Source: a virus (lineage: Duplodnaviria; Heunggongvirae; Uroviricota; Caudoviricetes). From it: DNA of 64,000 nt. Each line of letters starts with the position of its first letter. The stretch's first letter is position 1. The notes beneath the pieces are model-generated. The model did no database searches, was not told the origin of the DNA, and worked only from the letters and a program-made list of their open reading frames with translations. Both the position numbers and the translations under genes were made by a program. The DNA lies in the IMG/VR virus record IMGVR_UViG_3300042348_001285; one strand, written 5' to 3'. Shown here one piece after another: positions 2,634 through 62,412 of the stretch.

Positions 2634-3053
2634 TTAATCTCCGATTGGGATGAATTTAGTCTGTTTGTTTGGTGATTTGTTAGTTCCTGACATCCATGGT
2701 TGGACAACCATATTGTTCAGGTATTTCTCGACTGTGGGAATAAACCCCAGATCCTGAATAATGTGATCCTCAGCAATGTCTCGCGGAGAGTAAGTTACCC
2801 CCGCAGAGTTTACACGAGTGCGTCCGAACATTTGCTCGACGACGAAACACCCGAAAGAAGAGTGCAACAACGCACGGTGCCGAATGTCGGGGAACGCAAT
2901 TTTACTACTGTCGATAAAGTCGTCGATGTCAGCGTAATCGTCTGGTAATCCGCCGTACTTCTTGGCATGTTTTCGCCCATGTAGAAAAGGTTTCATTTTG
3001 CTTTTGGGTCTAGGGTGTGTATGTATCCAGGTTTCATTGGTACCGCTCATCAC
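2634..3053 (-). CDS. hypothetical protein (139 aa)
   Basis: Intact ORF, 4 nt downstream of the previous gene. Confidence 0.5.
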   Translation of the reverse strand: MMSGTNETWIHTHPRPKSKMKPFLHGRKHAKKYGGLPDDYADIDDFIDSSKIAFPDIRHRALLHSSFGCFVVEQMFGRTRVNSAGVTYSPRDIAEDHIIQDLGFIPTVEKYLNNMVVQPWMSGTNKSPNKQTKFIPIGD

Positions 3054-6629: not shown

Positions 6630-7055
6630 GGTGTGTTCCGGTGCGGTACTTGCATATTGTAGCACCCTGAGGTGAGGACTGTGGCTCCTGGTACCTAGGC
6701 TCGGGAAATCGTTACGGTTCGTCACATTGCCGTGGATGTCGAAACCATGGGAAAAGCCCCGGAAACCGGGGCGGTAGTGGCGGACCCGGAAAGTTACCAG
6801 CGGGCGGCCCAGACCTTAAGCTCAGCCAGGTTGTAAGTGGCCATTGCGGTCCGGTGCGGATGACTCTGTAATTATAGCATGGTTGCCAGGGGTGCTGACG
6901 GGTCTGTGAACATTCGGTAAGTTTGCGCCTCGGGTGTGATGTTACAAAACTTAACACATCAAGGCAGGGAGTTTAACGGCAAGGAGTTTACCACGAGAGT
7001 AATACACTTGTACTAGCTCACCTAGTGGCATTACCCGGTGGCAATACCCAAACAG

Positions 7056-7079
7056 CAAAAAGCCCCGGCGAACCGGGGC
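7056..7079 (-). terminator. Rho-independent terminator (UUCG-loop hairpin plus U-run)
   Basis: Minus strand reads GCCCCGGTTCGCCGGGGC followed by UUUUU, just after the stop at 7092. Confidence 0.7.
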
Positions 7080-7277: not shown

Positions 7278-7556
7278 GGTGCGTTCCGGTGCGGTACTTA
7301 CATATTATATGCCAGGGATGGATGGGTGTCAAGGCGCTGGGCGGTTTTGTTTGCGCCCTGTAACAATGCCGGTCGGTGAGTTTACGCTTCGGGTGTCGCG
7401 CTTCGGGTGAGTTGACTATCGGGTGCGATGTTACAAAACTTAACATTCCGATGCCAATGAGTTCGACCGCAATGAGTTAAGGGTCCAAGTAGCAAGAACC
7501 CGGATAGCAAAAAGCCCCGGCAAGGCCAGGGCAAGGCAGGCAATGGGCCGGAGCCC

Positions 7557-9425: not shown

Positions 9426-9867
9426 GATGCGTTCCGGTTCGGGACCCCCATATTGTATGCCATGGGTGGCCAGGTGTCAAGGTGCCGGGTTGTTTGTTTG
9501 CATTTCGTAATAATGCTAGTGGGAGTAATACAAACGTACTAGCTTACCCGGTGAGTTTGCGCTTCGGGTGTCGCGGTCCGGTGAGTTTGCGCTTCGGGTG
9601 TCGCGGTCCGGTGAGTTTGCCGGTCGGTGAGTTTGCCGGTCGGTGAGTTAACTATCGGGTGCGATGTTACAAAACTTTACATACCGGGGCAGGGAGTTTA
9701 ACCGTAATGAGTTAGCCACCCGGTGACAACACAAAACTTAACATTCCGGTGGTAGCTTCACGGCAATGAGTTAGCCACTCGGTGTCAGCACACCATGGCA
9801 GGGGGCATGTGAAACCAGCATAAAGAAAGGCCGCCGATTGGCAGCCCTTTACTATGCGGACTTTCGT

Positions 9868-10257: not shown

Positions 10258-10562
10258 GGTGCGTTCCGGTTGACTCTGTAATTATAGCATGGGGCGGGAG
10301 CCTGCTGTGGGTTTCCGGGGGTTTTGTTTGCATTCCGTAATAATGCCGGGTCGGTGAGTTTGCGGTTCGGTGAGTTGACCATCGGGTGAGATGTTACAAA
10401 ACTTAACACACCGGGGCAGGGGGTTTGACCGTAATGAGTTAGCCACTCGGTGTCAACACAAAACTTAACACATCATGGCAGGGGGTTTGACCGTAATGAG
10501 TTAAACCCCCAAACAGCAAGCCCCAGCAAAGCCAGGGCAGTAGCAACAACCTGATGCAACCC

Positions 10563-10954: not shown

Positions 10955-10977
10955 CAAAAAACCCCAGCGAACCGGGG
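10955..10977 (-). terminator. Rho-independent terminator
   Basis: Minus strand reads CCCCGGTTCGCTGGGG followed by UUUUUU. Confidence 0.65.
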
Positions 10978-10998
10978 CGAGATGGAAAGGTCGCGGTA

Positions 10999-13398: not shown

Positions 13399-13422
13399 AA
13401 AAAAAACCCCGGCGAACCGGGG
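13399..13422 (-). terminator. Rho-independent terminator (UUCG loop plus U8)
   Basis: Minus strand reads CCCCGGTTCGCCGGGG followed by UUUUUUUU. Confidence 0.75.
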
Positions 13423-13449
13423 CAGGGGCAGGGCAGTATTGGGTGGGTG

Positions 13450-13662: not shown

Positions 13663-14281
13663 TTGCCGTTTGGTGCGGTACCCTGTAATTATAGCATGGT
13701 GCAGGGGCAATTGCGGGGTGCCGTTTGATGGCGTTTGGTAACAATGCCGTTCGAGTAGTAGGTTTGTACTAGCGGACTTCGGCGGCAATTTTCGGTTCGA
13801 ACTATCGGGTGTGATGTTACAAAACTTAACATTCCGATGGCAGTTTGACGGCAATGAGTTTACCACAGGAGTAATACAAACGTACTAGCTGACTCCGGCG
13901 GCAATTTGCGGTTGAGAGTGGTACTAACGTACTACCTAACCCGGTGTCAAAATGGGGGCCACGAGGATCGGACTCGTCTTCTATTTGTTATGAGCAAATT
14001 GCATTCACCAGATTGCTAGACCCCCGTGAGTATTACATTACCCTGGCAAGTAAGTTCCGGTCACTATTCCTAGCAGCCATGGCAACCAGCACAGGCAAGC
14101 AAGCCCCTGTAGGCATGGTGCGTCCCAACCGTGCAATGAGTTTGGGGTCCTCACCAGGGAGAACGACCGGTTTCCATGGGCCCGGTGGAAAGGTGGTTTC
14201 GGTGGTCATAAGCCTGGGGGGTGACAGGTTGATTATAGCATAGGGGCCAACACAGTGTCAACCCCTCGGCAACCCCGACCA

Positions 14282-14540
14282 TCAATAACCCAGCCAAACC
14301 AGGGCCTGACCAGCATGGTTAGGGTTGACTTCAGGGTGGGAATCAGCCTTAAGGTCCGCAACATTTGCCTCATGCTGCCGTAGAAGCCGCCCAAGCTCGC
14401 GGTCAGTCAGGATCAGAGACTCGCTGCGGTCCCAAGCTGCGGCCAGAACGCTAGCGGCATAATTGTCGGGATCTTGACCCAGTGCATAATCAAAGCAGTC
14501 GGCCCACTGCTCGTCGGTGAAGGCAACCTGCTCGGCGCTG
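14282..14540 (-). CDS. cassette ORF whose conserved ATG position is lost; start uncertain
   Basis: The cassette 'TGCTACAATTACAGAGTCACTACCTGGACCGCCACC' is present, but I find no in-frame ATG before the body (...HIISAEQVAFTDEQW...). This is either a non-canonical start or a decayed gene. Confidence 0.25.
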
Positions 14541-14689
14541 ATGATGTGGCTGGTAGCGGTGACAGCGGTTGCCGTGGGTGGCGGTCCAGGTAGTGACTCT
14601 GTAATTGTAGCACACGGGGGTAGGGTGCCGTGGGTTCTGTTACGCTTCGTGATGATGGGCACGGCAAGGGGCCAACACAGTGTCAACCA

Positions 14690-14869: not shown

Positions 14870-15065
14870 TTTTTCTCCGGGGTGTCCGTCTATTGTAGCA
14901 TAGTGCTGGGGGGGGGGTTGGGGTTTGCGGGTCGGTGTTGTGCTTCGGGTGTTAGGCTTCGGTGAGGTTGCCGGTCGGTGAGTTTGCAGTCCGGTAAGTT
15001 GACTATCGGGTGCGATGTTACAAAACTTAACATTTCATTGGCATCGAGTTTGTGGTATGAGTTAC

Positions 15066-15372
15066 TTAAATGTAATTATAGGGTGCTTTTTGCGAGTAAT
15101 GTAGAATTCCGGGGTGTGTTTTCGGAGTAATGTAGAACGCCCCAAAATAAAAACCCAAAATTCAATCCTTGAGATCGATTGCAGGGGAACGGAGTTACTC
15201 CTAAAAAAATTAAAAATTTTAGGACCTTTTCAAAAACAGCATGAAAAATTCTATATTTGAATGCAAATTCTGCACCCTACTACTATAATCGCATATAAAT
15301 TATTTAATAGAAGACTCTTATCAATGAGTTATGATACATAAGAGTTCCTTATCAATAGGTAATAGCAGTAAA
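15066..15372. repeat. complex intergenic module, copy A (iterons, hairpins, AT-rich tail with IHF-like site)
   Basis: Carries 2x 'GGGTGCTTTTTGCGAGTAATGTAGAA'-type iterons, the hairpin TCCTAAAA-N10-TTTTAGGA, and TTGAAT...TATAAT. Related to the copies at 17.1, 19.9, 21.5, 22.2, 25.2, 25.7 and 29.4 kb. Confidence 0.8.
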
Positions 15373-15430
15373 GCAACAAAAAAAAGGGAGGGTTACCCCT
15401 ACCCATTCTTTGCGCTAAGTTTATCGCCAA

Positions 15431-16888: not shown

Positions 16889-17027
16889 TGTTGCCGGTGG
16901 TTGGTTGGCTCCGTAATTATAGCACATTGCCTCGGGGGTTGGGGCCCCGGATTGCTGACTCCCAAGGTGTGGTGGACAGTTTGTAAACTGTCTATTTGAC
17001 TTCGTGAGTTTGACTTTTAGGGTTTGA

Positions 17028-17318
17028 TTCTGGGGTGTGTTTTCGGGGTCAATGTGGAATCTCAGAGTGCTTTTTGCAGGTAATGCAGAAACCCCAATTT
17101 GAAAAGTTCGAAAGTCAACCGCTGAGATCGACTGCAGGGGAACGGAGTTACTCCTAAAAAAATTAAAAATTTTAGGACCTACTGAAAAACCATCCAAAAA
17201 ATTCTACATTTGAATGCAAATTCTGCACCCTACTATCATATACTCGCGTAAAAATTATTTAATAGAAGACTCTTATCTAAATGTCTAGACAGATAAGTAA
17301 TTCTTATCAATCTAATCC
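17028..17318. repeat. complex intergenic module, copy B
   Basis: Same iteron, hairpin and AT-rich architecture as copy A. Confidence 0.8.
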
Positions 17319-17449
17319 CCCATCAAACCGCAATGTTGTGGGCTATTCGAGGATGCTAACCGGAGTCTCACACCAAATAGCAAAGGGGGCGATGCCGTAG
17401 CACCAACCCCCAAACATTAAACTAAGGTCAATCTAAGGCCAAACCAAGG

Positions 17450-18315: not shown

Positions 18316-18695
18316 GGTTGCCGGTGGGTGACGACAGGGTAATCATAGCACAGGCAGGAAGGGGGGGCGCAAGCCCCTTGCCCCCCGGTTTTGTCCCTCA
18401 GTCTGGAATTGATTGGCCGTAGCGGAGGGGTTCGGCTTCTTTCATTACCTAATAGCTGCATGAATGTTTAATAGCCCCATGGTAAACCACGCTCACATTC
18501 TCATATATTCTTTGTTGAAAACAAAGACTTGGCATCATTCATGCAGGTTTTCGGCTCTTACTTCACCTCATTTAACTCTCGCTGAGACAATGCGAGTAGC
18601 CCCGTTGACTTTGCGGTTTGGGTGGTGGTGGTGGGTGACTTCGGTAGTATAGCACTAATGGGAAGGGAACGCAAGCCCCCCCGACATGCCAATAA

Positions 18696-19582: not shown

Positions 19583-19744
19583 TGCATAATCCGGCTATCT
19601 GCCGGTGGGAGGAGGGGGCCGGGTTTGTCCCGATGGGTGAATTATAGCACATTGTCGGTGGTGCTGGGGGTCCAGGATTGTTGACTCCTGGGGTGTGGTG
19701 GACAGTTTGTAAACTGTCTATTTGCGTTGGGAGTTATGACTCTG

Positions 19745-20060
19745 GGGTTGGGTGCCGAGGGTGCATTTTGTGAGTAATGTGGAACCTTAGGGTGCGTTTT
19801 CAGGGCAATGTGGAAACTCTGAAATCAAAAACCGAAAATTCAATCCCTGAGATCCGTTGCAGGGCAACGGAGTTACTCCTAAAATTTTTGAATTTTTTAG
19901 GACCTAGTGAAAAATGAGTAAGAAAATTCTACATTTGAATGCATATTCTGCACCCTACTATCATATACTCGCGTAAAAATTATTTATAGTACACTCTTAT
20001 CTAAATATCTAAACAGATAAGAAATTCTTATCCATAAGCACAATCAATGAGTTAAGAACC
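19745..20060. repeat. complex intergenic module, copy C
   Basis: Iterons 'GGGTGCATTTTGTGAGTAATGTGGAA' and 'GGGTGCGTTTTCAGGGCAATGTGGAA'. Also the hairpins, a palindrome CTTATCT-N12-AGATAAG, and 'TTATCCATA', which is DnaA-box-like. Confidence 0.8.
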
Positions 20061-21439: not shown

Positions 21440-21716
21440 TAATGAGTTTGATTTCGGTTTGACTTTAGGTGTTATGGCACTAGGGTTGAGTGCTAGGGGT
21501 GCATTTTGCAAGTAATGTAGAAACCCCAAAATCAAAAACCCGAAAGTCAATCCCTGAGATCCATTGCAGCGGAACGGAGTTACTCCTAAAAAAATCAAAA
21601 ATTTTAGGACCTAGATGAAATCCATCCAAAAAATTCTACATTTGAATGCATATTATGCACCCTGGGGCTCTTTATATACACTTTTTCGCGAATATATGAA
21701 TAATAAGTGTTTATCT
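21440..21716. repeat. complex intergenic module, copy D (subfamily with 'atgcaccctggggctctttatatacactttttcgcgaatatatg')
   Basis: Shares its core with the other copies but has a distinct right arm, which copy F also has. Confidence 0.8.
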
Positions 21717-22054: not shown

Positions 22055-22445
22055 GTAAACATGGCAGGTATTTTCGGAGTTAATGTGGAACCTTGGGGTG
22101 CTTTTTGCCAGCAATGTAGAATACCAGGGTGCGTTTTCCGGTTAATGCAGAAACCACAAAATCAAAAAACCAAAATCCATTCCTTGAAATCGACTGCAGG
22201 GGAACGGAGTTACTTCTAAAATTTTTGAATTTTTTAGGACCTAGTTGAAAACAGCATGAAAAATTCTACATTTGAATGCAAATTCTGCACCCTACTATCA
22301 TATACTCGCGTAAAAATTATTTATAGTACACTCTTATCTAAATATCCATAATCAATAAGTTATCCTTATCTATGTACCAACCAATAGGTAATAGCAGTAA
22401 AGCAACAAAAAAGGGAGGGCCACCTTTCGGCAGCCCCCTTATCAG
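22055..22445. repeat. complex intergenic module, copy E (three iterons)
   Basis: Three 29-31-bp iterons are followed by the conserved hairpins and the AT-rich tail. Confidence 0.8.
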
Positions 22446-24929: not shown

Positions 24930-25039
24930 CGTTGCGGTGTCGGTTGGTTGGCTTCGTAATTATAGCACATGGCCGGGTGTGGATGCGGTTCGGCATGTTG
25001 ACCCCGGGGTGTGGTGGACAGTTTGTTAAGTGTCTATTT

Positions 25040-25330
25040 GCGTTGGGAGTTTGACTTTAGGGGTTTGATTCCGGGGTGTATTTTCGGAGTTAATGTGGAA
25101 CCTTAGGGTGCGTTTTCAGGGCAATGTGGAAACTCTGAAATCAAAAACCCGAAAGTCAATCCCTGAGATCCATTGCAGGGGAACGGAGTTACTCCTAAAA
25201 AAATTAAAAATTTTAGGACCTAGTTGAAAACCATCCAAAAAATTCTACATTTGAATGCATATTATGCACCCTGGGGTCTTTATATATATACTTTTTCGCG
25301 AATATATGTATAATAAGTGTTTACCTTATG
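25040..25330. repeat. complex intergenic module, copy F
   Basis: Same subfamily as copy D. Confidence 0.8.
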
Positions 25331-25537
25331 TTGTTGGTGAGTTGAATAGTTGACGACTGGGTGTGATCTCGTCGGTCTCAGTTGAGTATCGGAATGAGTT
25401 CACATCGAGTAGTTTACAGTTGGGATACAGTCTCGTTTCAGCCCCACAATAAGACTCATCCAAATAGTCAACAACTAGGGTACGGTCTCAACAGTCTCAC
25501 TTCAATCTCACAATGAGATCACACTTCAAGAGCAAAC
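25331..25537. repeat. degenerate copies of the 64-bp unit between modules F and G
   Basis: Reads '...gatacagtctcgtttcagccccacaataagactcatccaaatagtcaacaactagggtacggtctcaacagtctcac...'. Confidence 0.6.
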
Positions 25538-25865
25538 AGATGGGTGCATTTTAGGAGTAATGTGGAATCTCAGGGTGCATTTTAGGAGTAATGTAGAATG
25601 CCCCAAATCGAAAATCGAAAATCCATTCCTTGAAATCGACTGCAGGGGAACGGAGTTACTCCTAAAAAAATTAAAAATTTTAGGACCTAGTTGAAAACCA
25701 TCCAAAAAATTCTACATTTGAATGCATATTCTGCACCCTACTACTATAATCGCATATAAATTATTTAATAGAAGACTCTTATCAATGAGTTACGATATAT
25801 AAGAGTTCCTTATCAATAGGTAATAGCAGTAAGGCAACAAAAAAAGGGGGGGTAATCACCCTAAG
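25538..25865. repeat. complex intergenic module, copy G
   Basis: Two near-identical iterons 'GGGTGCATTTTAGGAGTAATGT(G/A)GAAT'. The right arm is nearly identical to copy A. Confidence 0.8.
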
Positions 25866-26151: not shown

Positions 26152-26526
26152 TCAACCCCGCCCATACTGGCGAACCCTCTCCAAATAGGTCCCCCAAACC
26201 GACGGATCCATGGCACCTGCCGTTGTCTTAAAGTGATGGGAGAAAAACGTAATGGCAAGCTCCATATTGCGCCTACCAACAGGATTAGCAGAATGAATGA
26301 CCACAGCCGGTGGAATAAACCCACCATCAAAACCATTCTCATACACAATTTGCTCAATCCACTTGCAAACATCCATGCCAGTTCCCCTAGCGTCATCCCC
26401 GAGATCATGATCCAAGGATACAACTTCGACATTGCCAGTCTTCAGCAATTCGATAACCTCATCAGGCCAATAGCAACGGACCCATCCATCAGGGGTAGGC
26501 CTGATATCATCGAGAAATACTTTCAT
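26152..26526 (-). CDS. receiver-fold-like small protein (CPR/REC-like signature LDDxR...DHDLG)
   Basis: 'MKVFLDDIRPTPDGW...VVSLDHDLGDD'. The start overlaps the stop of the cassette mini-ORF (ATGA). Confidence 0.35.
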   Translation of the reverse strand: MKVFLDDIRPTPDGWVRCYWPDEVIELLKTGNVEVVSLDHDLGDDARGTGMDVCKWIEQIVYENGFDGGFIPPAVVIHSANPVGRRNMELAITFFSHHFKTTAGAMDPSVWGTYLERVRQYGRG

Positions 26527-26564
26527 TGCCTTGGGGTTAGGTAGACTGTGGGCGTGGTTGCCAT
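26523..26564 (-). CDS. cassette-encoded mini-ORF (13 aa, MATTPTVYLTPRQ), translationally coupled to 26152..26526
   Basis: ATG GCC ACC in the conserved cassette position. Its stop TGA overlaps the ATG of the next gene. Confidence 0.3.
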   Translation of the reverse strand: MATTPTVYLTPRQ

Positions 26565-26886
26565 TGGGGAGGTCCGGTGGGTTACGGCAGGGGAATCATA
26601 GCATGGCCCTGGCAGGTTAGTTGGTGGCCCCGTAATTATAGCACAGGGGGGCCAGGCTACGGGTGCCGTTACATTCCGTAACAACAGGTACGGCAAGGAG
26701 TCACTGGATGGCAACCCCTGTAAAGAATTGGCCAGGTTGTGGGGTTATGCTTTCGCTCCTGAAGGGTAGCCAGGCGAAGAAGGGCAGCCCTGCGGCTGAT
26801 AGTCCTACTTCCATTTCCCACTATTTGCCTTCACGTCTACCTGTATTTTGGGTTGTGACCCTATTGTAGCATGGGCCGAGGCAGAG

Positions 26887-27081
26887 TCAACCCTCAGGGT
26901 CCTTGGGGCTGCTGTCATCAAGTAAAGCCATTGCGACTATGGATCCAATGAAAAGTAGAAACCATAACGTACTCAATATAGATAATAGCCCTAGGTTTCC
27001 CTTAGCTACCCAATAAGCAGCAGAGAATATGTGACATTGGGTGATAATAAACTTGGTGTTACGTTTGAGGTTTGACAGCAT
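26887..27081 (-). CDS. small membrane cassette ORF (64 aa)
   Basis: Hydrophobic 'LLSILSTLWFLLFIGSIVAMALL'. Confidence 0.4.
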   Translation of the reverse strand: MLSNLKRNTKFIITQCHIFSAAYWVAKGNLGLLSILSTLWFLLFIGSIVAMALLDDSSPKDPEG

Positions 27082-28991: not shown

Positions 28992-29261
28992 GGTGGGACC
29001 CGGTGCGTTTAGTTGGTGGGTGACTTTGGTAGTGTAGCATGGGGCCAGGGGCAATGTCAACACCCTGGTTTTGGTCCCTTGCTTGCTGACCCATGAATTA
29101 TAGCATGTCCGGGGGCCAACTGTGGATGGCCGGGAGTTAATGCTCATGGGCCGACACATTGCCGAAGGGATTGACAAGGCTGGGGGGAGTCGCCCTATAA
29201 TGGGCAAACAATCAGAGAAGGGGCCTTGCCCACAGGTAATAGGTTATGCCACGGGGCTATG

Positions 29262-29545
29262 CCATGGTGCGTTTTGCCGTTAATGTAGAATTTTGGGGTG
29301 TGTTTTCGGGGTTAATGTGGAATCGTCAAAATCAAAAACCCAATTTTCATTTCCCCAAATCCATTGCAAGGGAACGGAGTTACTCCTAAAATTTTTGAAT
29401 TTTTTAGGACCTAATGAAAAACGATCCAAAAAATTCTACATTTGAATGCAAATTCTGCACCCTACTATCATATATTCGCGAAAAATTTATTTATAGTACA
29501 CTCTTATCTAAATACCTATATAGATAAGTTTTGTTTATCAATGAG
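29262..29545. repeat. complex intergenic module, copy H
   Basis: Iterons 'GGTGCGTTTTGCCGTTAATGTAGAAT' and 'GGGGTGTGTTTTCGGGGTTAATGTGGAAT', plus the hairpins and the AT-rich tail. Confidence 0.8.
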
Positions 29546-29653
29546 TTTGCTGTTAGTTCTCATCAGCCATCTAACTATCGTCAAGCCAATTTAAATACCA
29601 TGCCATTTTATTCCCCGAAAGATATAGTCAGTAGGTCATCACCCTATCAGCAA

Positions 29654-43847: not shown

Positions 43848-45290
43848 TTACCCCGAAACCCTGCCATCACTAATCATTATGCCTTCACTTACCAATAACT
43901 CCCGAATCCTATCTGCTTCCTTAAAATCACGATTAGCCCTTGCGATGTTGCGCATTTCAATTAGTGCCTGAATTTCATCACTTTTTGGTTTTTGAGGCTC
44001 GGAAACCTCGTGAACCAGCCCCAAAATCCCAGCTAATTCATGTAAAAGCCCCCAACGATTTAGAATTTCCCTATTTTCATCGCCTGCCGATACAATGGGA
44101 CGAGCCAAATAGAATAATTCGCTGATGGCTACAGACGTATTAAGATCATCATTGATTGCCGAAATGAAGCGGTCTCGGCTATTTTTTAAGTCTGTAGTTA
44201 AAATCAAGGGTTCATTCGTTTGCTGACTAATCCCGTGCCGACTAATTCCATGCTGACTAATTCCATTCCGGCTAGCCCCATGCCAACTATACCCATGCCG
44301 ACTATCACCCCGCCAACCAAACCCCAATGCAGCATTTAATACTTTCCAACCATTGATCGCGGGTATCATTGCCTCTGAATTAAAATCTATCGGCTTCCTG
44401 TAATGGGCTTGTAATACGAATAACCTAATGGTCATGGGACTAATGCCGGATCCAATTAGGTCCCTGATGGTTGTAAAATTCCCTAAGGATTTAGCCATTT
44501 TTTCTTCGCCAACCGTGACAAACCCGTTATGAAGCCAATACCTGGCTAGTTCAGCCCCATTGGCAGCCTCAGATTGGGCTATCTCATTTTCGTGGTGGGG
44601 AAAGATCAGATCGGCTCCACCCAAATGAATGTCAATTGTCTCACCTAGTTCTTCCCTAATCATAGCCGAACATTCAATGTGCCATCCGGGTCGGCCCCAC
44701 CCCCATGGTGACGGAAAGCCGGGTTCACTCGCCATGGCACCCTTCCAGAGGGCAAAATCAAAAGGGTGGCCCTTCTTTGAGTCGCTATTAACCTGTTGTT
44801 GGCCAAGGTTGCGACCACTTAGTTTCCCATACCCCTTAAACCCCATAACCGAGAAGTACATATCACCACCCATAGAATAAGCAAATCCCTTATCGGCAAG
44901 GTCCTGAATCATGGTGCGGATTGCATCAAGACTACGGGTAACCCTTGGCATTTTGTCGGCGGGCAGGATGTTCAATGCACCCATATCCCCCTCAAAGGCC
45001 CTGATATTACGCTCACTGACGGCTTCGATTGTTGTTCCTTCAGAGTTGGCTTTGGCTAGAATTTTATCGTCGATATCCGTATAATTCTGAACAAACGTAA
45101 CCTCATACCCATGCCACATAAAATTACGCCTTAAAACATCCCACACAATATAACTGCGGGCGTGCCCTAAGTGGCATAAATCATAAACGGTAACACCGCA
45201 ACAATACATCGACACTTTGCCTGGAACCAGCGGAGTAAACTTTTCCTTGGCTTTAGTAAGGGTGTTGGTTAGGGTAATGTCGTTAATCAT
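43848..45290 (-). CDS. cysS: cysteinyl-tRNA synthetase with an internal HGIS repeat insertion
   Basis: HIGH region '[15 protein letters not shown]' and KMSKS region 'KMAKSLGNF'. The insertion '..[27 protein letters not shown]..' is encoded by a 15-bp tandem DNA repeat at about 44215-44290. Confidence 0.85.
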
Positions 45291-45423
45291 TGTATTTGCA
45301 GTGGGGGGGGCTGGGGGCTGCGTCAATTACTTATGTGTCCTTGTTAAATGGAGAAATTGCCAACTGAATCGCAAAGTGCTGCAATAAGTGCGGGCACATA
45401 TGAAATATAAATAACCCCCCTTG

Positions 45424-50292: not shown

Positions 50293-51462
50293 TTAAACAG
50301 GCATTACCAAATATGTGTAACATGCCCCATCATTGGAATTAACCGGGGTCAAAACTGCTGGTGTTGTCGGGGCGTTCATTTGAATTTTAACTTTATCTGC
50401 ACCCATAACCTTAGTCTTCAGGACTTCAATTAGGTAACGCACATTAAATGCGATTGTGATTTCCGGACTATTACCAATGACCGTCAAACTCTCATTAAAT
50501 GACATCATTCCTTCGGCTTGAGCACTAATTGTGGCCCCAACCTCAGTAAACTCAAACTTGACTACATTATTATGGGCATTAGCCACAATGGCAGCTTGCT
50601 CAAGTGTAGTCAGCAGAGAAAGACGATCAAAGACAGCAACCGACTTGAAATTATCAGGAATCAACTGCCGATAGTTAGGGTATTGCCCATCTGCCAATCG
50701 GAATTGAACCTTATAGGTGCCGTACACCATGGTAACATCTTGCTTGGATACAGTGAAGGAAACCGGACTAAACTTAGGCTTAGCTCCAATAATCCTGGCA
50801 ATCTCTGCTAGGATCTTAGCGGGCATCGTAAAGTTAAATTCTGTTTCCTCAGTATCAACAATGTCATCCAAAGTCAAAACTGATAACCTGATCCCGTCCG
50901 TAGCAGCAAAAGTCAAAGAATTGCCAGCAAGTTGTAGGTTGACCCCGGTAAGGAGCATCTTGGCCTGGTCCGAACTTGCCGAAAACAGGGTACTTCCCAA
51001 ACCAGAAACAAACTCAGCAGATTGCACACCGAACGTTATTGAATCGGTAGTAATACTGGCTGTGACTGGCACACTCGGAAAATCATCTGCTGAGATCGTA
51101 TTGATCTTAACTGCTGCCCCCTTGTCCGAAGAAACCAACAACTTACCTTCAGAATCACCGGGGTCAAAACTAAGGATGACCGCCGAAGTCTTAGGCATCC
51201 CGTTTACGATATCCTTAAGGGTGGACACCGAAGCAGTAATTGAACCTGGAGACTGCACCGATGCAGCAATATCGACTGATACTTGTTTGATGAAACCGGA
51301 ATTATTTCCCAGATCATACACCGTGGCCACCAACTTACCTGTATCAGGAACAGCGGTAAGCAACACATTGAGGAGAACAGGATGCTTAGCCCGCTTATCA
51401 TAGTTCCGTGCTAGAACTTTCAAGGCTTGGCTGAAATCAGATTGGGCAACTACGGCTTTCAT
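50293..51462 (-). CDS. dnaN: DNA polymerase III beta sliding clamp (bacterial DnaN type, three-domain)
   Basis: 389 aa. 'TDGIRLSV' matches the beta-clamp TDGHRL motif. The C-terminus '..YLVMPV' is typical of DnaN. Confidence 0.8.
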   Translation of the reverse strand: MKAVVAQSDFSQALKVLARNYDKRAKHPVLLNVLLTAVPDTGKLVATVYDLGNNSGFIKQVSVDIAASVQSPGSITASVSTLKDIVNGMPKTSAVILSFDPGDSEGKLLVSSDKGAAVKINTISADDFPSVPVTASITTDSITFGVQSAEFVSGLGSTLFSASSDQAKMLLTGVNLQLAGNSLTFAATDGIRLSVLTLDDIVDTEETEFNFTMPAKILAEIARIIGAKPKFSPVSFTVSKQDVTMVYGTYKVQFRLADGQYPNYRQLIPDNFKSVAVFDRLSLLTTLEQAAIVANAHNNVVKFEFTEVGATISAQAEGMMSFNESLTVIGNSPEITIAFNVRYLIEVLKTKVMGADKVKIQMNAPTTPAVLTPVNSNDGACYTYLVMPV

Positions 51463-55419: not shown

Positions 55420-56094
55420 TTAACCCAGCAGCAAGCACGATGCCGAAGCATCGTCAACCCATAGGGTTTCCAGATCATAGACAGAATTTGGCTTGCCTTC
55501 TTCCAAGGTAACTCCAAGGTTCCCCGTATAGTAGTTACTGGTTACCCTAGCCACTGTGCCTATGGGCTTTACTGTCTTTTTCTTTTGCCTCCTGTAAACA
55601 GTTTGCCCCTTCAAATATGAATATCCATTAGGATCACATCTGACAGGGCTATCACTAACTTTGGTGTACCCTTCGATATTGACCCCCTTAGTCTCACCAT
55701 CGGCACAATTTGTTTGTTTATTGCCTTTCCTGTTTCTATAGGGTCGGTCACCATTACCCTTCCTAAAGTTACATCCCGCGCACATTGGTTGGAGATTATT
55801 AAGGCTGTCACCACCCCCTTTAGACTTGGGAACAATATGATCAACAGTCAATGGATAAAGATCTTCAGTATAAACATCCCAATGTCTCCCACCACGGCCT
55901 TTACCCAATACTAACCTAGACCCAACTTTGCCGCAAGTTACGCAAGTACACCCTTTGTTTGCAAAAACTCTTAGGCGCGGATGGGAACTAAATGATGGCA
56001 AACTTAATTTCTCAATTGGGGTCTCCCTGAGGACAATATAGTTAAAAATCTGGGTCTTTGCGGTCAGGTTAACCCTTGTGGCTACGGCACCCAT
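55420..56094 (-). CDS. HNH endonuclease
   Basis: 'CTCVTCGK...HWDV...LTVDHIVPKSKGGGDSLNNLQPMCAGCN' carries the Cys and His/Asn residues of the HNH motif. Confidence 0.8.
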   Translation of the reverse strand: MGAVATRVNLTAKTQIFNYIVLRETPIEKLSLPSFSSHPRLRVFANKGCTCVTCGKVGSRLVLGKGRGGRHWDVYTEDLYPLTVDHIVPKSKGGGDSLNNLQPMCAGCNFRKGNGDRPYRNRKGNKQTNCADGETKGVNIEGYTKVSDSPVRCDPNGYSYLKGQTVYRRQKKKTVKPIGTVARVTSNYYTGNLGVTLEEGKPNSVYDLETLWVDDASASCLLLG

Positions 56095-56225
56095 CACTTC
56101 ACCCCCAACTTAACCAGCAGGCAAGTACGGCGAGCCCTAGCGGCCTTAGCCGCCTGTGGCTTACGTTTGCCCTTGGATTTACGACCCTTCTCACGGGGTC
56201 CCAGTTTGCTGTGGTTGCTGGTCAT
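56094..56225 (-). CDS. small basic ORF (43 aa) translationally coupled to the HNH gene (TGATG overlap)
   Basis: A TATAAT promoter at about 56245 is followed by 'MTSNHSKLGPREKGRKSKGKRKPQAAKAARARRTCLLVKLGVK'. Confidence 0.35.
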   Translation of the reverse strand: MTSNHSKLGPREKGRKSKGKRKPQAAKAARARRTCLLVKLGVK

Positions 56226-56348
56226 GGCATTAGCGGTCCGATACTTGTGTATTATAGTGCGTGGGAGTGGCTTTGTCAACCCCCCTGACACTGCGGCAAC
56301 AACCCCTAGCCTTGACCCTGTGGCCACAACTATGGGGGCCAAACCCCA

Positions 56349-56876
56349 TTAGCCGTCCATCAAAATACGATTAGGAACATAAATCCACTTAGCATCATGG
56401 CTAATGTTCGTGTCCAAAATACAAACTTCTAGCTTTTTCCCTTCATTTTTAGACGCAAAATCGGTGAAAGGTTTTTCGTAGGAGCGCATAGTCCCAGCTA
56501 ACTTACCCGTAAACAGATTCCTACTTACATTGTAACCCCTAAAACTTTCTGCAGAAGGGTCAGGCAAGTCAAAATGAGTTTCAATGTAGATACCGCTATC
56601 GGCACACTCAGGTTTGAATTCGCGTTCGATTTTGACCCTGTTAAGGGTGGTCCGATTAAAATGCGAAAGCAAATTCCCAATGTGCCCGATAGCCAATTCA
56701 TCCCTATCAAAAGATGCCTTATATGAGGTCATCCAGTCAACTTGCACCACCTCTTTTCTATGGTTCAAAAGTTCAAAGGCAATAACTGGAATTTGCTGCA
56801 AAGCAGAATAGGGATACGTATTAAGCATTACGATGGCTTCTTTGGGCGCTGTGATGTGAAATTCGTAGGTACTCAT
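56349..56876 (-). CDS. hypothetical protein (175 aa)
   Basis: Intact ORF. Confidence 0.5.
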   Translation of the reverse strand: MSTYEFHITAPKEAIVMLNTYPYSALQQIPVIAFELLNHRKEVVQVDWMTSYKASFDRDELAIGHIGNLLSHFNRTTLNRVKIEREFKPECADSGIYIETHFDLPDPSAESFRGYNVSRNLFTGKLAGTMRSYEKPFTDFASKNEGKKLEVCILDTNISHDAKWIYVPNRILMDG

Positions 56877-56963: not shown

Positions 56964-57713
56964 TTACATTTTCATTGTAGCATCTAGACGCAAGCCCCCA
57001 GAGAAGATAACCTTAGCCATTGTGTCAGGTAGCGTCCCCAGTAGATGCAGAGAGTCTAAAGTGGAAAACATAAACATTTTGTTAAGCTCCTCCCTTACCC
57101 TTTCTCTGGAGACGCAAGCTAGCATTTCTACTGCCAAGTCACTGCGCAATACGGCATAAGTTTCATCATCGGGGATGAATCCTTTGGTAATTTGGAACCT
57201 GAACCCTCTGAGTACCCTAAGGCCGTCCTCTCTGATTCTGTCAGCAGGGTTCCCAACGAAACGGAGAATTTTGTTCCTAATGTCGAGAACTCCCCCGAAA
57301 GGGTCAATCAGGGATCCATCAATGGCCTTGGCAATTGCCCCACTGGAAAAGTCCCTTCTGGCTAAATCATCATGCAAAGTACCCGGCTTCACCCAATCAG
57401 GGTGACGGCCATCGCTGTAGGGACCATCTTTGCGGGCTAGTACAAAATCTGCGACGGTGGTGCGGGCTTCTAGCGCATGGCCCTTTGGGACCCGCGCACG
57501 GATGGTTAGAAACTCACGGCGAGATTCGAAGATTTGAAAACCTTGTTCAGAGAGTTGAGCTTCCATTGCTAAGAAAGCGCTATCGGCCGTGGCGAAGACA
57601 CCCTTGGGAGCAACAACAGAGAAGTCAATGTCCTTGGATGGAATCCCAAGTAAACTATCCCTGACACAACCCCCTACCTCAAAAAATTGAAATTTTTCCA
57701 CTTGCTTTGCCAT
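56964..57713 (-). CDS. class-II nucleotidyltransferase (CCA-adding enzyme / poly(A) polymerase head-domain family), short form
   Basis: 'FEVGGCVRDSLLGIPSKDIDFSV' matches the GGxVRDxLLGxxxxDxD signature. The protein is only 249 aa, so head and neck domains without the tRNA-binding body. Confidence 0.7.
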   Translation of the reverse strand: MAKQVEKFQFFEVGGCVRDSLLGIPSKDIDFSVVAPKGVFATADSAFLAMEAQLSEQGFQIFESRREFLTIRARVPKGHALEARTTVADFVLARKDGPYSDGRHPDWVKPGTLHDDLARRDFSSGAIAKAIDGSLIDPFGGVLDIRNKILRFVGNPADRIREDGLRVLRGFRFQITKGFIPDDETYAVLRSDLAVEMLACVSRERVREELNKMFMFSTLDSLHLLGTLPDTMAKVIFSGGLRLDATMKM

Positions 57714-62327: not shown

Positions 62328-62412
62328 AGGAAGAGGGGAGATTCGAACTCCCGGAGGTTTAACCCCCTGCAGTTTTCAAGACTGCTGCTATCAACCACTC
62401 AGCCACTCTTCC
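62328..62412 (-). tRNA. trnS(UGA): tRNA-Ser (anticodon UGA), class II with long variable arm; 3' CCA not encoded
   Basis: Minus strand folds as follows. Acceptor GGAAGAG/CTCTTCC. D-stem GCTG/TAGC with loop AGTGGTTGA. Anticodon stem GCAGT/ACTGC with loop CUUGAAA, anticodon UGA. Variable arm of 16 nt. T-stem GGGAG/CUCCC with loop UUCGAAU. It is followed by UUAU, not CCA. Confidence 0.9.

Follow-up and report, generated by a model that had tools for sequence, protein, structure and literature searches.

Short open reading frames (ORFs) behind repeated phage promoters raise the question of whether they share one origin. We addressed it with three such mini-ORFs in a stretch of 64,000 nucleotides (the window) from IMG/VR record IMGVR_UViG_3300042348_001285, whose source genome is an uncultured phage (Caudoviricetes) of ~280 kb; all window genes lie on the minus strand. 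The ORFs have 13 codons (26564..26523), 43 codons (56225..56094) and 16 codons (6844..6794). The initial annotation had explained all three as stubs encoded by an inserted promoter cassette, placed upstream of genes that kept their own starts and now rely on termination-reinitiation, with the third ORF noted as standing alone. The three ORFs, together with the stop/start overlaps reported for the first two, were confirmed at these positions on the minus strand. The single origin held for the first only, a stub before the native start of a cREC_REC gene, whereas the second is a conserved gene and the third a gene remnant. From comparisons with related genomes, we estimate a probability of roughly 0.7 that the three mini-ORFs have three origins and are all by-products of cassette-driven reshuffling.

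The cassette is marked by the extended −10 box TGCTATAAT. With at most one mismatch, this box was found 68 times in the window against 14.4 expected, nearly always on the minus strand (about 56–68 copies there), a repetition far beyond chance. In 42 cassettes an ATG followed the box at 22–40 nt, behind a CA-rich leader (74% A+C, 8% T), and the cassette consensus was ...caccaaccgacaccgcaaCaATGgCcaCCgCaaCC. The repeat ended with ATG-GCN-ACN plus a few CA-rich codons. Many copies were near-identical across the first five codons, giving the N-termini MATAT..., MATTT... and MAPAT..., and the copies at 24967, 12297 and 22901 were near-identical up to ...caaccaaccgacaccgcaacgATGGCTACCGCAACC. The start codon therefore belongs to the cassette repeat, as the initial annotation had proposed.

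Shine-Dalgarno-like 4-mers were rare, being carried by 4 of the 35 cassette genes and by ~3 of the 34 others, and start regions were weakly folded, with a mean minimum free energy (MFE) of −4.7 kcal/mol compared with −8.5 kcal/mol in random windows. Terminator-like sites numbered 38 against 22.8 expected, including a repeated GCCCCGGTTCGCCGGGGC-TTTTT family, and many small genes are followed by one. Some −35 regions were overlain by G-tract/C-tract hairpins. When the window was compared with its relatives L002, L014 or L018, homology blocks repeatedly stopped within ~10 nt of a −10 box. In a multiple alignment, the region upstream of cREC_REC was a mosaic, with different cassettes in different relatives.

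Several features of individual cassettes were also recorded. A terminator family of the form GCCC(C/T)GG-loop-CCGGGGC, then TTTTTGCTGT, recurs at 7079..7062, 13423..13406, 10978..10961, 7532..7514 and 10538..10520; as this family closes many small cassette-led genes, promoter and terminator are both parts of repeated units. Gene starts across the window were almost without Shine-Dalgarno motifs, and their CA-rich, unstructured start regions extended into the first codons. A canonical cassette at 14612..14573 (minus strand; TGCTACAAT plus leader) reads ACG GCA ACC GCT GTC ACC at the start position. The ACG is in frame with a long ORF ending at 14282, which leaves two readings, loss of the start codon (ATG to ACG) or use of a non-AUG start. 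The cassette promoter at 18654..18560 (minus strand; TGCTATACT plus a CA-rich leader) is followed neither by an ATG at the canonical distance nor by an obvious ORF.

Junctions at the cREC_REC gene

The 13-codon ORF (26523..26564, minus strand) reads ATG GCA ACC ACG CCC ACA GTC TAC CTA ACC CCA AGG CAA TGA and would encode MATTPTVYLTPRQ; its opening had been given as ATG-GCC-ACC, and the second codon is in fact GCA. Its stop, TGA at 26525..26523, and the start of the cREC_REC gene, ATG at 26526..26524, overlap as ATGA. Two cassette promoters stand upstream on the same strand. The first, P1, has the extended −10 box TGCTATAAT at 26635..26643, and the ATG at its canonical position (26604) opens only ATG CTA TGA, because the −10 box of the next cassette sits there. 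That next promoter, P2, has the box TGCTATGAT at 26595..26603, which is TGCTATAAT in L014; the stub ATG follows this box at 30 nt, as is canonical for cassettes. We scored initiation contexts with a matrix built from 35 cassette-led gene starts, on which real cassette starts averaged 12.7 bits. The stub ATG at 26564 scored 16.2 bits, the 99.4th percentile of other minus-strand ATGs, and the native cREC_REC ATG scored −9.9 bits.

The gene behind the stub (26152..26526, minus strand) encodes 124 amino acids (aa), and its match to PF20274 reaches 93.6 bits (cutoff 27) and E = 1.2e-26, with residues 1–92 falling on profile positions 1–86 of 88. Residue 1 of the protein aligned with position 1 of the profile, and the native start MKVFLDD is the one seen in bacterial and other phage homologues. 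Altogether 939 homologues were found, and the distant ones inspected (P0004-P0008, P0011, P0020) begin MK[VI][FY]LDD. Compared with L021, the gene carried 43 synonymous and 20 nonsynonymous codon changes, by which measure it is under purifying selection.

Close relatives (L001-L007, L047) were identical in the stub region and so uninformative, and relatives at 81–90% identity were reached by protein search. In three independent lineages the gene had no stub, and the leader ran directly onto its start: the native start codon GTG in L018-20 (88%), the native ATG in L022 (90%), and the native ATG behind a different upstream gene in L048. The L022 junction carried entirely different cassettes behind a shared upstream block. 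Two other relatives had in-frame fusions. In L021 (81%), the cassette contributes a 10-aa in-frame extension and the native ATG is now CTC. In L014, whose protein is 99% identical, 16 nt have been duplicated in tandem, ATGGCAACCACCCCCA directly followed by ATGGCAACCACGCCCA, which has put the first ATG in frame, giving MATTPNGNHAHSLPKPKA-MKVF (P0001), and the stub frame is retained from the second ATG with the change T10N. Gene callers annotate the L014 product as a 143-aa protein, the duplication yielding a 19-aa N-terminal extension at 3001–3057 of L014, the counterpart of window 26564..26527. In the window clade the junction is the stub with its ATGA. The stub-free relatives and the two fusions bear out the view that a cassette stub precedes a gene that kept its own start. 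It follows that cREC_REC translation in the window lineage must begin at the native start.

The junction lies in a module of ~330 nt (26862..26527) that holds a 37-codon ORF (26701..26814, minus strand), P1, P2 and the stub; the module is bounded on one side by a −10 box (26871..26863) and on the other by the start of cREC_REC. The entire module was missing in L018, where the equivalent of the promoter TTGACT-16-TACAAT with a TG extension (26863..26890, minus strand) drives cREC_REC directly. The 37-codon ORF was conserved at the nucleotide level in L014 and L022; it has an in-frame TAG at codon 12 in L022, so the block may be non-coding or decaying. In L002, 96 nt of partial cassette copies, with GGCCCCATGCTTGCCA... 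repeated and a TTGACA newly added, have been inserted at ~9565–9660 (the counterpart of window 26885..26871) and split the −35 from the −10 of the promoter equivalent to window 26890..26863.

Conservation of the stub peptide would have spoken for a real product. The peptide was confined to one clade, in which its single change (T10N, L014) is nonsynonymous. That it is identical in nine window-clade assemblies could be taken as a sign of a functional micropeptide, or of a regulatory leader peptide acting by attenuation or ribosome stalling, but those nine genomes are near-identical overall. The peptide is absent from L018-20, L021, L022 and L048, and its only variant is bypassed by an upstream in-frame ATG. 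Folding of the cREC_REC leader gave no significant or alternative structures, and hence no masking or attenuator model. We regard a peptide function as very improbable. Less probable still is a frameshift artefact of assembly or sequencing, in which the true gene would be an N-terminally extended cREC_REC like the L014 form. The fused L014 product does differ by just the 16-nt duplication, but this is a clean tandem repeat unit rather than a homopolymer error, and the stub was base-for-base identical in at least eight independent samples and assemblers (JGI and ENA). With no distant conservation and an identical stub across independent samples, both ideas were rejected. It stands, on this comparison of lineages, that the 13-codon peptide is non-conserved and that the gene pre-dates the cassette configuration.

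The 43-codon and 16-codon ORFs

The 43-codon ORF (56094..56225, minus strand) encodes MTSNHSKLGPREKGRKSKGKRKPQAAKAARARRTCLLVKLGVK, a basic protein, and follows a sigma-70-type promoter, TTGACA-17-TATAAT, at 56251..56279 (minus strand). Its TGA (56096..56094) overlaps the ATG (56094..56092) of an HNH endonuclease gene (55420..56094, minus strand) as TGATG, and an in-frame GTG lies at 56097. The ATG of the 43-aa gene scored −1.2 bits, a non-cassette context. Nine related proteins were found, six of them 39–50 aa long and 60–67% identical, and the ten-sequence alignment (A2) had 20 invariant columns, among them the block SKLGPREKGRK.G.RKPQA. Against L046 (93% aa identity), the gene had 13 synonymous and 3 conservative nonsynonymous codon changes; in either of the other frames, these substitutions would amount to 14–15 nonsynonymous changes. 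Against L035 there were 3 synonymous changes and 1 nonsynonymous. The homologues in L042 and L043 (two contigs read) stand alone, with no HNH gene downstream, and in L043 the gene is preceded by a Shine-Dalgarno motif of its own, with a hairpin following the stop. The protein had zero matches in PHROGs, the collection searched here as distinct from Pfam.

The synonymous-biased divergence of a conserved protein, together with its stand-alone homologues, refutes the idea of a cassette stub at this site. By these sequence criteria, the 43-codon ORF is a real small basic protein gene, and purifying selection points to its translation. The HNH gene, which the initial annotation had taken as the older partner, is, rather than a cassette, probably the newcomer. 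It matched PF01844 with 42.6 bits (cutoff 21.4), and many HNH PHROG families matched too. A Shine-Dalgarno-like GGGGG lies 7 nt upstream of its ATG, inside the upstream ORF. The HNH gene is frameshifted and split in L035, and paralogues with 42–44% identity occur elsewhere in L036 and L037 without a 43-aa-type ORF upstream. This pattern suggests that it behaves as a mobile or decaying element. The overlap itself differs among relatives: L035 shares the TGATG of the window, and L046 has ATGA. In the same neighbourhood, a 175-aa gene (56876..56349) between the CCA/polyA-polymerase-family gene and the 43-aa gene is missing in L035, the 279-kb relative; its absence is another cassette-bounded presence/absence difference.

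The 16-codon ORF (6794..6844, minus strand) encodes MATYNLAELKVWAARW. A cassette −10 box, TGCTATAAT, stands in front of it at 6871..6879, and an intrinsic-terminator-like hairpin, ccccggtttccgggg plus ctttt, stands behind it at 6752..6771, both on the minus strand; the hairpin is also present in L045. This 127-kb viral contig was found by a degenerate-codon pattern scan. In L045 the same 16 codons close a 58-aa ORF, MATLNTSNQILDFFAGHPDVRVTRRFGQYRVHRVENGRLAGC followed by MATYNLAELKVWAARW, the only differences being a single synonymous change and the stop codon used. The promoter region, the ORF tail and the terminator align almost perfectly between the two sequences, and the first 42 codons of the 58-codon gene are missing in the window. 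Two further 58-aa variants (P0130 and P0131) are 86–93% identical, so the long form is the conserved one. A locus search using the gene downstream of the 16-codon ORF recovered zero relatives. Rather than a product of cassette insertion, the 16-codon ORF is, by its match to these proteins, the 3′ remnant of a conserved 58-aa gene.

Proposed reshuffling and the start of cREC_REC translation

How could one process have left three such different traces? In the account that we favour, the small-gene region would be built of ~60 homologous cassettes, often with a terminator or stem-loop, each carrying the extended −10 box, a 22–40-nt leader and start codons. Recombination, duplication and deletion at these repeats would reshuffle the genes, as in promoter-early stem-loop (PeSL) cassettes. 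At cREC_REC, a cassette would have come to lie 38 nt too far upstream and out of frame, and its strong-context ATG would open a 13-codon ORF ending on the ATGA of the gene. After initiating at the cassette ATG, ribosomes would meet their stop codon at the native start, where reinitiation could follow; direct loading onto the native ATG, which is just as unstructured, could be a second route, and the 13-codon peptide itself would be functionless. At the second locus, a free-standing HNH gene would have been placed right behind the 43-aa gene, with stop and start overlapping. At the third, the first 42 codons of the 58-codon gene would have been lost by deletion, leaving the cassette fused to an internal ATGGCCAC with the look of a cassette start.

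The alternative with which the annotation began, that all three ORFs are cassette stubs upstream of pre-existing genes that now depend on termination-reinitiation, is improbable. The cREC_REC locus fits it well, with a cassette-context ATG, the ATGA overlap and stub-free relatives, and ATGA/TGATG pairs are usually strictly coupled (Huber et al. 2019, PMC6728339). But the second ORF is a conserved protein gene with a non-cassette ATG, the third is a truncated 58-codon gene with nothing coupled downstream, and the native cREC_REC start is accessible.

A number of results weigh against the reshuffling account or against parts of it. No HNH-free allele was found at the basic-gene locus among the relatives recovered (L023-L035 and L046 all carry HNH), so the HNH insertion is itself presumed; the basic-protein/HNH pair was kept in all three jumbo-phage relatives examined. 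Copies of the 43-aa gene without HNH were found only as distant stand-alone homologues. At the remnant, the leader at 6879 differs from that of L045, which blurs the exact deletion breakpoints. For the 31-nt spacer that separates the cassette codons from the native cREC_REC ATG, a search turned up no paralogous source. The 70 nt upstream of promoters did not fold significantly more strongly than controls (mean z −0.58 vs −0.29); with stem-loop enrichment not significant overall, the PeSL analogy is incomplete. The sequences, the states in relatives, the selection patterns and the start-context scores are direct results. Translation of the stub is predicted from its 30-nt distance to the −10 box and its 16.2-bit context; a contribution of reinitiation to cREC_REC expression and the direction of some rearrangements are inferred. 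A displaced cassette ATG occurs at three independent junctions, and in none was the third, inhibitory frame seen, an outcome that is not significant ((2/3)^3 = 0.30). The RNA around the cREC_REC start is unstructured (MFE −22.1 kcal/mol, z = +0.65), and a 50-nt window centred on the native ATG gave −2.1 kcal/mol with a CA-rich upstream side, like other starts. Because the native start is weakly folded, coupling would not be needed to unmask it.

Whether coupling contributes materially to cREC_REC translation is, on the sequence features at hand, just short of an even call. No other initiation context in the cREC_REC leader is as good as that of the stub ATG, and for ribosomes completing the 13 stub codons the point of termination would coincide with the native ATG. 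In experiments, 13 of 14 gene pairs with ATGA/TGATG overlaps proved to be strictly coupled (PMC6728339). The native ATG disappeared in L021 once a cassette ATG had come into frame, an indication that cassette ATGs prevail in initiation. Reliance on termination-reinitiation is plausible, and is weakened by an accessible native start in a genome with little Shine-Dalgarno use.

We hold more tentatively to the possibility that ribosomes load mainly and directly on the ATG at 26526, independently of a Shine-Dalgarno motif, with the 13-codon ORF neutral or mildly competing and the overlap coincidental. The scarcity of Shine-Dalgarno motifs in cassette and other genes alike argues for it, as do the unstructured starts, the CA-rich native ATG region with its −2.1 kcal/mol included. 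Local unfoldedness has been reported to be sufficient for initiation without such a motif (PMC3121790). The overlap, moreover, is about a 1-in-3 chance outcome, since the native start reads ATG AAA, so that one in three upstream frames will stop at it; several other real starts in the window likewise have short upstream ORFs that by chance finish on their ATGA. Direct loading has to contend with the score of the native ATG on the cassette start matrix (−9.9 bits), with its position 38 nt downstream of the top-scoring ATG, where stub ribosomes would repeatedly cover it and terminate, and with its loss in L021 after the cassette ATG had come into frame.

It is possible, if somewhat unlikely, that the cassette acts as a complete portable expression module (terminator, extended −10 promoter, CA-rich initiation region lacking a Shine-Dalgarno motif, and first codons) with which the phage captures and expresses foreign ORFs. 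The cREC_REC variants would then represent successive stages of capture: the ATGA stub, the MAT... extension by 16-nt duplication, the loss of the native start, and precise joining. If this is true, overlap coupling would be a transitional state that keeps a newly captured gene expressed. The junction series at cREC_REC is the most interesting residue of the analysis and offers natural test material for the translation of newly juxtaposed genes. For annotation, short ORFs behind phage promoter cassettes are not one class, as they can be junk, a real 43-residue protein or the remnant of a gene, and proteins like the conserved 43-residue one are often missed by gene callers.

The phage genome and known systems

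Two contigs, of 282,847 bp and 284,095 bp, encode a cREC_REC protein identical to that of the window, and a third, of 279,339 bp, encodes a 99% variant. Neither the focal region nor a 14.5-kb core had a nucleotide match by megablast among 50,697 phage records, and tblastn with a 446-aa window protein gave zero matches in cultured phages. The clamp was the sole protein-level link to cultured phages, at 26–31% identity with cyanophages on top. Given these results, the phage has no cultured relative and its host is uncertain; the weak cyanophage-like similarity of the clamp is a faint hint of a host with little Shine-Dalgarno use. No T4 core genes were found within the window. By GC and GC3 content, neither cREC_REC nor HNH was compositionally foreign.

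Elsewhere, the window encodes a full-length cysteinyl-tRNA synthetase (45326..43848), a DNA polymerase III beta clamp (51462..50293), a PolyA_pol/CCA-adding-family enzyme (57713..56964), a tRNA-Met (14025..13953) and a tRNA-Ser (62412..62328). These two tRNAs were the only hits of the Rfam and ARAGORN scans, with none at the mini-ORF loci. Relatives also encode an alanyl-tRNA-synthetase-family (tRNA-synt_2c) gene. An AT-rich dispersed repeat family of ~300 nt has eight minus-strand copies, two of them in tandem, at 15060–15400, 17000–17320, 19720–20010, 21480–21680, 22090–22430, 25050–25290, 25520–25860 and 29260–29550. Each copy begins just past a terminator and stops ~100 nt upstream of a cassette promoter. 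Its invariant blocks are TAGGGTGCAGAATTTGCATTCAAATGTAGAATTTT and AGGTCCTAAAA..TTTTAGGAGTAACTCCGTTCCCCTGCA, followed by 2–3 tandem TTCYACATTAC....AAAAYGCACCC units. The repeat had no Rfam match, and its copy number varies among relatives.

The nearest known counterpart of the cassettes is PeSL, the mobile regulatory cassettes of T4-type phages (PMC2839356, Arbiol et al. 2010; PMC4122927, Comeau et al. 2014). Both systems have dozens of sigma-70-like promoter repeats directly upstream of small genes of unknown function, repeats associated with terminators or stem-loops that end at the start codon, and insertions, deletions and replacements between close relatives that are bounded by repeats. The cassette-bounded changes seen here are the ~330-nt module (L018), the 96-nt insertion (L002) and the replaced cassettes (L022, L048). 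In contrast to PeSL, the present phage is not demonstrably T4-like, with only a weak clamp match; its promoter is of the extended −10 type and frequently lacks a −35 box; a CA-rich leader, in place of a Shine-Dalgarno motif, precedes the start codon; the repeat homology reaches into the first ~5 codons (ATG GCN ACC GCA ACC); and stem-loop enrichment is not significant overall. The locus adds an apparently non-T4 and Shine-Dalgarno-independent case of cassette-mediated modular shuffling.

The stop/start overlaps resemble the coupled ATGA/TGATG pairs described by Huber et al. 2019 (PMC6728339) in being formed by co-directional ORFs with a 4-nt or 1-nt overlap. Unlike the gene pairs described there, the upstream ORF at cREC_REC is a non-conserved 13-codon by-product instead of a partner gene, and the present genome is largely without Shine-Dalgarno motifs; the likeness is one of sequence. 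A short ORF in a 5′ leader also recalls bacterial leader peptides of the trpL and ermCL type, but the stub has no regulatory codons, no alternative hairpins and no conservation of its peptide.

The HNH gene has its counterpart in the free-standing HNH genes of phage intergenic regions, such as T4 mobE, which overlaps nrdA (PMC2988022, Edgell et al. 2010; PMC2790892, Wilson & Edgell 2009). Like mobE, it lies between conserved genes with its start overlapping the upstream stop, and, like other free-standing HNH genes, it has paralogues at other positions and a degenerate copy in one relative. It differs from them in that no HNH-free allele was recovered at the present site and in its two overlap types, TGATG and ATGA. 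No new mechanism is required for any of the three mini-ORFs, and the closest kinds are PeSL-type shuffling, overlap coupling and free-standing HNH genes.

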